Origin: Candidatus Sigynarchaeum calidifontis
GTDB taxonomy: Archaea; Asgardarchaeota; Lokiarchaeia; Sigyniarchaeales; Sigyniarchaeaceae
Assembly (NCBI GenBank): GCA_030587475.2
Contig: JAUQYZ020000247.1
Location: 1-15,718 of the forward strand
Length of the DNA stretch: 15,718 nucleotides
Reading direction: 5' to 3'
Below, one piece after another: positions 6,111 through 7,223 of this stretch. The position numbers and the translations under genes were made by a program. The notes beneath the pieces were generated by a model. That model saw nothing but the letters and a program-made list of their open reading frames with translations. It searched no databases and was not told the origin of the DNA. Positions within the stretch are counted from its first letter, which is position 1; each line of letters opens with the position of its first letter.

Positions 6111-6185
6111 AATTCTTGGAGGCAGCGGTATTTTTTGAACATCGATGCGCGATCCTTTTAGATGATATCGACATAGGATTTCAGT

Positions 6186-6410
6186 ATGCCTCATGCCGTG
6201 AAGATAGTTTACTGCGAAACGTGAGGCGGCTCCAAGGAAGTGCGCAAGTTCATCGAAAACGATGTCCCAGGTCTCAAGGCAGAGGCAAACTTCGAGCTCG
6301 TCGTGGTACATGGCCAAGCGCCGACGATCGAGATCGACGGCCAGCGCCTCGATGTCGACGTGAAGGATTACAAGAAGGTCAAGAAGACCGTCGAGGAAAG
6401 GCTCGATTAA
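6186..6410 (+). CDS. Selenoprotein, small thioredoxin-fold (SelW/Rdx-like) protein with CxxU motif; TGA 6222-6224 = Sec
   Basis: Readthrough translation: MPHAVKIVYCETUGGSKEVRKFIENDVPGLKAEANFELVVVHGQAPTIEIDGQRLDVDVKDYKKVKKTVEERLD* (74 aa). The N-terminus parallels SelW VRVVYCGAUG. Host-like G/C-ending codons continue after the TGA. The gene fills an otherwise empty gap and has a SECIS downstream. Confidence 0.88.
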
Positions 6411-6458
6411 ACGCGATACGCACAGCCTTGAAGGGCATTCGCCCAGATATTTGATGGA

Positions 6459-6540
6459 CCACGCGGCGATGATGCCCGGGTAAAAAAGGATCGCGACGAG
6501 CCAAGCCCGGGCGGAGCGCCGGCAGCGACCGGCCGCGTGG
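6459..6540 (+). promoter_or_regulatory. Eukaryote/Asgard-type SECIS element in the 3' UTR
   Basis: AUGA 6469-6472; helix UGCCCGGGU (6473-6481) paired with GCCCGGGCG (6505-6513); unpaired A6 at 6482-6487; apical mini-stem GGAUCG/CGAGCC; GA at 6514-6515. Lower helix is CGGCG/CGCCG (6464-6468/6517-6521) or CCACGCGGC/GCCGCGUGG (6459-6467/6532-6540). Confidence 0.85.
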
Positions 6541-6559
6541 GCTCATTTCTTGCCCCGGG

Positions 6560-6566
6560 AAAAAAA
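6560..6566 (-). terminator. Oligo-U archaeal terminator candidate for the HD gene
   Basis: T7 tract on the minus strand, 6 nt after the stop at 6573. Confidence 0.4.
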
Positions 6567-6572
6567 CGGCGC

Positions 6573-7139
6573 TCATCCGAGGATCGCCCGCTTCGCGTCG
6601 TCGAAGAACTTGAGCAGCTTGGGATCCGACAAATATTGTTCCGGCGCCTCGTAGAAGTCGCCCATGTCCTTGCCCGAAGCCTTCTCGTACTGGAGGGCCT
6701 GGATCATCATGTCGAGCTTGTCGATCTGGTGCACGATGGCATGGACTGGGTCTATTTCTGGAGCGTTGCCAGCCGAGATGAAGGCCTCGATCTCGCGCTG
6801 CAAGCTTGCCATGCCCGGCACCGCACCGAAAAGTTGCTGCACCGCGTCGAGCTCCATCTTGGCCTTCCGGGCTGGCGCGACGTTGTCCGCTGGGGTGATG
6901 TCGCCGGTCACGCCTTCCACGATGTCGTGCAGAAGTGCCACGGCCAGCAGCCGTTCAGCCGGCAACGCGGCGGGCAATATCCCGGTCTCCTTGAGCAAAA
7001 GCGCGAGCAGCGCCGTCCCGAACGAGTGCGACCCGACCGACTCGACGCGGCCCGCCAGCAACCCCCGCTCGACCCACCCCTTCCGCGGCAGGTGCTTCAC
7101 CGCGTGGATCGCCTCCAGCAAGCGAATGTATGCTGACAT
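6573..7139 (-). CDS. HD-domain hydrolase, HDDC2/YfbR-like 5'-deoxynucleotidase (188 aa)
   Basis: KHLPRKGW, ESVGSHSF, ALLHDIVEGVTGDITP and DKLDMMIQALQYE motifs. Start re-called at ATG 7139 with a GGTGG RBS. Confidence 0.92.
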   Translation of the reverse strand: MSAYIRLLEAIHAVKHLPRKGWVERGLLAGRVESVGSHSFGTALLALLLKETGILPAALPAERLLAVALLHDIVEGVTGDITPADNVAPARKAKMELDAVQQLFGAVPGMASLQREIEAFISAGNAPEIDPVHAIVHQIDKLDMMIQALQYEKASGKDMGDFYEAPEQYLSDPKLLKFFDDAKRAILG

Positions 7140-7168
7140 CGGTAGATTTCCACCACCAGGCAGAATTG

Positions 7169-7196
7169 TATAAAAGATGCCAAGACGACATTTAAT
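7169..7196. promoter_or_regulatory. Divergent promoter region between the HD gene and ftr
   Basis: TTTTATA on the minus strand (7175-7169), ~30 nt before the HD ATG. TTTAAT on the plus strand (7191-7196), ~28 nt before the ftr ATG. Confidence 0.45.
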
Positions 7197-7223
7197 CAAT
7201 TACCATTTCCGGAAGAGATCCAC

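Follow-up and report, generated by a model that had tools for sequence, protein, structure and literature searches.

The window, as we call the whole stretch of 15,718 nucleotides analysed here, contains a small gene with an in-frame UGA, and shortly after the stop codon of this gene the RNA can fold into a GC-rich structure. The locus therefore raises the question whether this structure is a selenocysteine insertion sequence (SECIS) that allows the UGA to be read as selenocysteine (Sec). Considering all lines of evidence described below, it is very probable that the element at 6459-6541 is a functional SECIS of the Asgard eSECIS-like/lokiSECIS type for UGA 6222 of the gene at 6186-6410. The features of the locus are given here, with the basis of each in brackets.

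6156-6163, plus strand: putative TATA-like box TTTTAGAT, upstream of the ATG by about 25 nt (read from the sequence)
6186-6410, plus strand: selenoprotein gene of 74 codons with the motif YCETUGG (translation)
6222-6224, plus strand: in-frame UGA, candidate Sec codon (TGA at the same codon in all homologues)
6459-6465, plus strand: helix I, 5' strand CCACGCG, pairs with 6534-6540 (minimum free energy, MFE, fold)
6466-6467, plus strand: C-stem of the kink-turn, GC, pairs with 6516-6517 (MFE fold and alignment of six orthologues)
6468-6472, plus strand: 5' strand of the kink-turn, consisting of the bulge GAU (6468-6470) followed by G6471 and A6472; AUGA is 6469-6472 (alignment)
6473-6481, plus strand: stem II, 5' strand, 9 positions, the first of which is the non-Watson-Crick N.N position (fold and covariation)
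6482-6487, plus strand: unpaired AAAAAA above stem II (A-rich in all homologues)
6488-6502, plus strand: mini-stem of 5 pairs with one mismatch and a loop of 3 nt (fold)
6505-6513, plus strand: stem II, 3' strand (fold and covariation)
6514-6517, plus strand: GA at 6514-6515 for the tandem sheared pairs, followed by the C-stem GC at 6516-6517 (alignment)
6518-6533, plus strand: side hairpin GCCGG CAGCGA CCGGC, loop ending GCGA (fold and covariation)
6534-6540, plus strand: helix I, 3' strand CGCGUGG (MFE fold)
6546-6551, plus strand: T-rich tract, here TTTCTT and in several homologues a run of six or more T (conserved just behind the element)
6560-6566, minus strand: run of seven T just past the stop of the HD-domain gene, likely its terminator (sequence)
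6573-7199, minus strand: gene of an HD-domain hydrolase (HD_3 match), convergent neighbour (domain match)

The small gene encodes a CxxU protein of 74 residues and ends with a TAA stop codon at 6408-6410. Related-locus searches of the genome contigs and of the metagenome contigs gave one locus each, and the entries of homologues include one named Candidatus Sigynarchaeum and another named Lokiarchaeota. The public gene calls either start after the UGA, which yields products of 56 residues, or take the TGA as Trp. In the DNA of all 11 loci (the window and ten others, together six distinct sequences) the frame of 74 codons could be restored, with TGA at the same codon in each. An exhaustive profile-free search added two remoter homologues with 46% and 38% identity, whose contigs have 34% G+C. 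The peptide encoded by the 12 codons before the UGA is conserved as protein in the 11 loci and in these two AT-rich homologues, and none of the homologues found, even the one with 38% identity, lacks the in-frame UGA. On the AT-rich Asgard-like contigs L094, L095 and L096 the Sec codon had been called Trp using a code with TGA=W, which places a false W at the active site in the databases.

No Pfam family matched the 74-residue protein, even at E <= 10. A profile of the gene family matches thioredoxin-like domains of the mL43/NDUFA2 type with its N-terminal half (E = 3e-5 to 2e-3). The family is absent from the seven Asgard and the eleven archaeal selenoprotein families of PMC11227280 and PMC13188914. 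A core of about 40 residues of the protein recurs four to nine times in giant proteins of 2000-6200 residues (P0011, P0013, P0018 and P0021, from a library of 1.8 billion proteins), and the small selenoprotein thus resembles a repeat module of far larger proteins.

The TATA-like box, at a distance of about 25 nt from the ATG, suggests that the small gene is transcribed as a unit of its own, probably without a leader; a TTATAG is found at the matching place in the genome G001. The neighbouring HD-domain gene is convergent, so the spacer of 162 nt between the two genes is the 3' UTR of both. Upstream of the element no T-run is present in the 3' UTR of the small gene, and the T-rich tract directly behind the element is likely the archaeal terminator of the selenoprotein mRNA, as judged from its sequence and position. 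Within the 3' UTR before the element (6428-6449), blocks resembling CUUGRA and YCGCCCAGA are conserved in all six close orthologues.

The element begins 48 nt past the stop codon. Its AUGA is located 58 nt past the stop, with the UGA at 6222-6224 lying 247 nt upstream. An earlier note, made from the sequence alone, had placed this AUGA at 6469-6472 and a GA at 6514-6515, and all of these coordinates are correct. It had further described a GC-rich helix of 9 bp, an unpaired AAAAAA and an apical mini-stem; these parts are present, and the RNAfold MFE fold is the described structure both for the element alone and within the whole 3' UTR. Stem II is composed of seven G-C pairs between two U.G pairs, and the bulge beside the mini-stem comprises 6+2 nt. 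Both GA dinucleotides, which would form the proposed tandem sheared G.A pairs, are invariant in 8/8 homologues. On the 5' side the preceding positions vary (G001 has G for the first A of AUGA, and L094 has G for the U); on the 3' side GAG from 6514 is invariant in all eight, and so is the C-G pair adjoining the bulge. Judged from sequence and secondary structure, the core of the element would form a classical simple kink-turn with a GC/GC C-stem, a 3-nt GAU bulge and tandem G.A/A.G pairs. Two parts of the fold are not mentioned in the earlier note, a closing helix (6459-6467 with 6516-6517 and 6534-6540) and the side hairpin 6518-6533. With the side hairpin, the element is predicted to be a three-way junction.

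Searches using structure alone were of little help. The fold energy is ordinary for the G+C content (z = -1.3 and +0.2 compared with shuffles). The bare pattern of [AG]UGA, a 9-bp stem, an A-rich loop and GA/AA gave 60 matches in the genome vs 48-53 in Markov shuffles, a descriptor of the three-way junction gave 63 genome matches, and the pattern with the closing helix gave 15 vs 4-10 in shuffles. All three descriptors are too unspecific to carry the argument. On the same strand within the 162-nt spacer, about 0.001 matches are expected by chance. Sorting of the matches into intergenic regions and long open reading frames was uninformative, because in this G+C-rich genome spurious frames overlie even true sites. 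The reality of the element rests on conservation, covariation and model searches and not on the bare pattern.

Conservation was analysed as mean pairwise identity among the orthologues. Helix I with the 5' side of the kink-turn reaches 0.94, the GA with the side hairpin and the 3' side of helix I 0.88, and the 5' and 3' strands of stem II 0.87 and 0.79. For comparison, the value is 0.79 at third codon positions, 0.62 in the remaining UTR, 0.47 in the downstream DNA and 0.39 in the loop of the element; the flanking non-coding DNA overall ranges from 45 to 62%. Core parts are thus conserved above synonymous sites. The element is present behind the gene in all 11 loci. In several of them the downstream neighbour is a different one (GPP34 or URO-D, not HD), and still the conserved block ends after the element and the T-rich tract.

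The earlier note had made conservation behind orthologues a test of its proposal, and this holds, including the two homologues with 34% G+C and compensatory changes in their stems. These two contain the GA...GA core and a stem of 9 positions with a wholly different sequence, then a T-run; their 11-nt loops are AAAAAUAUGAG and ACAAAUCGGAG, and the loop of the side hairpin ends with GCAA in both. For the analysis of covariation, eight homologues from about three independent lineages, a small sample, were aligned using MAFFT. In this alignment 95.5% of the cells are paired vs 23-49% with slid partners, and 0/500 shuffles reached as high a value. Both sides are changed in 7/14 pairs, and for stem II in 5/8. 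The side hairpin is 95% paired in the family with two pairs changed on both sides. Covariation within the six close orthologues is uninformative, as the pairs hardly vary there; 97.6% of the cells of helix I are paired in these sequences.

The mini-stem is found in the window, in G001 and in L026, that is in 3/8 homologues, and is absent in L030, L033, L034, L094 and L096. Relative to the 11-nt loop of L033 it is a 12-nt insertion. As this insertion occurs only in the three sequences named, the 'form 2' look of the window element is recent and lineage-specific, with a type I lokiSECIS as the ancestral state. The designation 'form 2-like' in the earlier note consequently describes the window element itself, whose mini-stem, bulge and apical loop lie within the published type II limits of 2-8 bp, 4-12 nt and 2-6 nt (PMC11227280), but not most of its homologues.

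That this architecture is known from Lokiarchaeota had been noted before, and indeed the literature already describes it for Asgard archaea, Lokiarchaeia among them (PMC4989117, PMC11227280). The lokiSECIS was defined by Mariotti et al. 2016 as AUGA, a 9-bp stem, an 11-nt loop and then GA, with the first five bases of the loop mostly A, the last one G and usually an A before it; the selD form is type II-like with a shorter stem (PMC4989117). Huang et al. 2024 extended the definition to 'eSECIS-like' models of type I and type II, and of 1439 Asgard selenoprotein genes 85% were followed by such an element (PMC11227280). The window element shares with these its location in the 3' UTR near the stop, inside the limit of about 600 nt, the core [A/G]UGA...[G/A]A in the form of AUGA and GA, a stem of 9 positions (7-15 bp in the models, 9 bp in Lokiarchaeia) and the adenine-rich start of the loop, AAAAAA. 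The orthologue L033 has exactly the geometry of the lokiSECIS: AUGA, a 9-bp stem, an 11-nt loop starting with AAAAA and ending with AG, then GA. The window element differs by its mini-stem, an insertion confined to its lineage, and by the closing helix and the side hairpin, which are missing from the 'key region' models in the main texts of these papers. A literature search revealed no description of a three-way junction for Asgard SECIS in the main texts of the SECIS papers.

Rfam at gathering threshold gave no match to the element, and the eukaryotic model RF00031 (SECIS_1) gave no Infernal match even at E <= 10, a failure that has been reported alike for all Asgard SECIS (PMC4989117, PMC11227280). 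Compared with the eukaryotic type II SECIS, the 3-nt bulge of the window element abuts a paired C-stem instead of a large internal loop, the side hairpin makes it a three-way junction, and there is no SBP2. The earlier note had proposed a eukaryote-type kink-turn bound by SBP2; a eukaryote-like core was indeed found, while binding by SBP2 is not expected, since SBP2 has not been reported from Asgard archaea (PMC4989117, PMC11227280) and the genome contains only two L7Ae-domain genes, both short.

The proposed distinction from the bacterial in-frame and the methanogen GAA/A types is borne out by our searches. Right after the UGA no notable structure of the bacterial hairpin type is present (z = +0.43), and the GAA_A bulge pattern of euryarchaeal SECIS does not occur in 6401-6580, with 3+4 chance matches in the whole window. 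With the SECIS of Methanococcales and Methanopyrus the element has in common the location in an archaeal 3' UTR and machinery of the PSTK/SepSecS type, but its core is GA/GA. It also resembles the simple kink-turns bound by L7Ae (Kt-7, box C/D) in the C-stem ending with C-G, the 3-nt bulge, the tandem G.A/A.G pairs and the non-canonical stem. It differs from them in that it has no box D or guide region, occurs within the 3' UTR of an mRNA and goes together with genes that have a UGA in frame.

If the element is a SECIS, similar structures should lie behind the known selenoprotein genes, as the earlier note had also argued. The same architecture is present in the host genome (G000) behind selD, three copies of hdrA and frhD. 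The selD element consists of helix I, UGAUGA, the stem, an AAAC loop, GGAG and a side hairpin. The hdrA copies are located on the contigs C47, C63 and C153, and on C153 the stop codon is the UGA of the AUGA; the frhD stop overlaps GUGA, as described for Lokiarchaeia. A structure-blind alignment of 18 selD SECIS of the order showed 89% of cells paired vs 32-48% with slid partners (0/500 shuffles as high), with both sides changed in 17/18 pairs across four helices, the side hairpin included.

Of the searches with three models of the elements, two succeeded and one failed. The best two non-self matches of model R1, built from the six orthologues, are hdrA 3' ends in G001 and G000; the hdrA site of G005 ranks just below one match inside a coding region. 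Model R3, built from the eight homologues of the window element only, gave nine non-self matches at E <= 1e-3, of which 8/9 lie directly 3' of Sec-containing genes in five genomes, namely hdrA (G005, G001, G000 and G002), prxL (G006) and frhD (two in G006, one in G005), and the ninth lies inside a coding region. Model R2, built from the 18 selD SECIS, retrieved selD only, and the window element was not scored at E <= 10. We count this as a failed independent test and attribute it to the AT-rich bias and the fixed mini-stem of the training set.

Several further observations were made at these sites. The selD, prxL, frhD and hdrA SECIS of this Asgard order contain a small hairpin that follows the 3' GA and precedes the closing helix; its loop very often ends with GCAA or GCGA. 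The hdrA on C47 has two in-frame UGAs and a three-way-junction element that overlaps its own stop (L036:1501-1594, minus strand; G000:C47:28691-28784). The core of this element is deviant, GAUGCA ... GAAGG (CCGAG in G002), and it is kept in three genomes (also L072 in G001 and L105 in G002). The canonical SECIS, located behind the downstream frhD, is present besides this element. Behind a Sec-containing frhD in G005 (L112, G005:C129:39690-39768, minus strand) the usual stem, AAAAAA loop, GGAG and side hairpin are present, and UAUCUA replaces the UGA on the 5' side.

Another candidate for an unlisted selenoprotein was also found (L079:428-598, G000:C193:7327-7497, plus strand; L083 in G001:C91; L071 in G003:C1, near 3353800). 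It would be a single-pass membrane protein of 56 residues ending with GGGUHG* (GGGUPG* in G001, GGGGUGST* in G003). Its lokiSECIS is clear in G000 and G001, with AUGA or GUGA, a 9-bp stem, a 12-nt loop ending with AG and a side hairpin; the core in G003 is irregular. The layout of the protein, with a TM helix, a Gly-rich tail and Sec near the C-terminus, recalls the eukaryotic SelK and SelS, a likeness of layout only.

A SECIS requires a host that inserts Sec. The genome (5.0 Mb, 54% G+C, 89% complete) belongs to an Asgard archaeon (Promethearchaeota) with archaeal Sec machinery, and the composition of the contig of the window is ordinary for its bin. The archaeal marker S3Ae, a ribosomal protein, was found, and a 16S rRNA was not found in the assembly. 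A bacterial origin, at first suggested by the G+C content and a GxGYxYP gene, is rejected on account of the matches to S3Ae and SepSecS. The Sec machinery comprises a tRNA-Sec (67.5 bits), SepSecS (395 bits), selD with an in-frame TGA and a SelB-like GTPase, which with 241.7 bits scores slightly below the cut-off of the bacterial model. SelA and the bacterial SelB wing domain were not found in this 89% complete genome. TGA is an ordinary stop elsewhere in the genome, e.g. in frhD. The two L7Ae-domain genes have open frames of 123 and 125 codons and presumably are L7Ae and L30e; a long SBP2-like protein is not among them. For Asgard archaea in general, no SECIS-binding protein is known (PMC11227280).

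Three other explanations have to be weighed. A G+C-rich hairpin that arose by chance, or a terminator structure, could be expected between convergent genes, and the ordinary fold energies of z = -1.3 and +0.2 and the roughly 50 motif matches expected by chance per genome are compatible with it. We consider this very improbable, since a chance hairpin would explain neither a core conserved above synonymous sites nor the compensatory changes in the AT-rich homologues, and where another gene lies downstream, the element is still found behind the selenoprotein gene. A T-run after the main stem itself, as a terminator structure would have, is not present. Still less credible is a riboswitch-like aptamer or a box C/D small RNA. 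The best match in a permissive Rfam search was c-di-GMP-II-GCG at 6456-6543 (18.8 bits, E = 1.4), far below the gathering threshold of 47.9 bits. Its likeness to the element is confined to the kink-turn and the flanking stems, so the match was rejected, and the other permissive Rfam matches are noise. Moreover, the element is located 3' of its own gene and faces a convergent one, so that nothing downstream could be regulated. GAUGAUG resembles box C, but this heptamer is not conserved (AUGAAGC in L026, GAGGAAA in L094) and a box D (CUGA) is missing.

In the third alternative the 3' UTR contains a conserved kink-turn that serves a different purpose, for instance L7Ae-dependent control of the stability, localisation or translation of the mRNA, and UGA 6222 is read through or decoded otherwise. 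L7Ae binds simple kink-turns of this kind in many archaeal RNAs. The core of the element with its 2-bp C-stem, 3-nt bulge and tandem G.A pairs has the textbook form, and the two short L7Ae-domain genes, in a group for which the SECIS-binding protein is not known (PMC11227280), would fit such a role. Against this, the element models retrieve the 3' ends of Sec genes almost exclusively, every homologue with the element has the in-frame UGA, and TGA is a normal stop codon at other genes of the host, as at frhD. We therefore regard another role of the kink-turn as improbable and the SECIS as the preferred reading.

For a SECIS at this position we infer the following course of events. The 3' UTR of the mRNA would fold into the closing helix, the C-stem, the bulge, the sheared G.A/A.G pairs, the 9-bp stem, the A-rich loop with the mini-stem and the side hairpin. 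A kink-turn-binding factor and the archaeal Sec elongation factor would recognise this fold, and candidate binders are L7Ae or L30e, the sole L7Ae-domain proteins found. Sec-tRNA(Sec) would then be delivered to the ribosome at 6222-6224, where UGA would be read as Sec rather than as stop. Transcription would end at the T-rich tract right after the element.

Covariation of the side-hairpin module is seen in selD, and hdrA, frhD, prxL and the two small unlisted selenoprotein genes are also followed by this module. On this basis we tentatively suggest, as a possible though rather doubtful generalisation, that the SECIS of this order is a three-way junction and not a two-stem hairpin. In such a structure the C-stem of the kink-turn would abut a conserved side hairpin, with a loop usually ending GCAA or GCGA, next to the closing helix. 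The junction could serve as a platform that recruits the Sec elongation factor without SBP2, e.g. through a tertiary contact of the tetraloop type that the kink makes possible.

Taken together, the finding is a confirmation and extension rather than a surprise or a new mechanism. The class of mechanism has already been published, and what may be new are the gene and the three-way junction. As far as can be judged from the sequences, the element supports a gene that is shortened in all public annotations seen, or has its TGA taken as Trp, as a true selenoprotein gene. The few listed families of archaeal selenoproteins thereby gain one more, and it comes from the lineage that is nearest to eukaryotes. 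Within this one gene family a type I SECIS has become type II-like by a single 12-nt insertion, and the difference between the two types is here the same distinction as that between the two eukaryotic SECIS forms. For the study of Sec insertion without SBP2, concrete targets for mutation would be the canonical kink-turn geometry and the recurring side hairpin.
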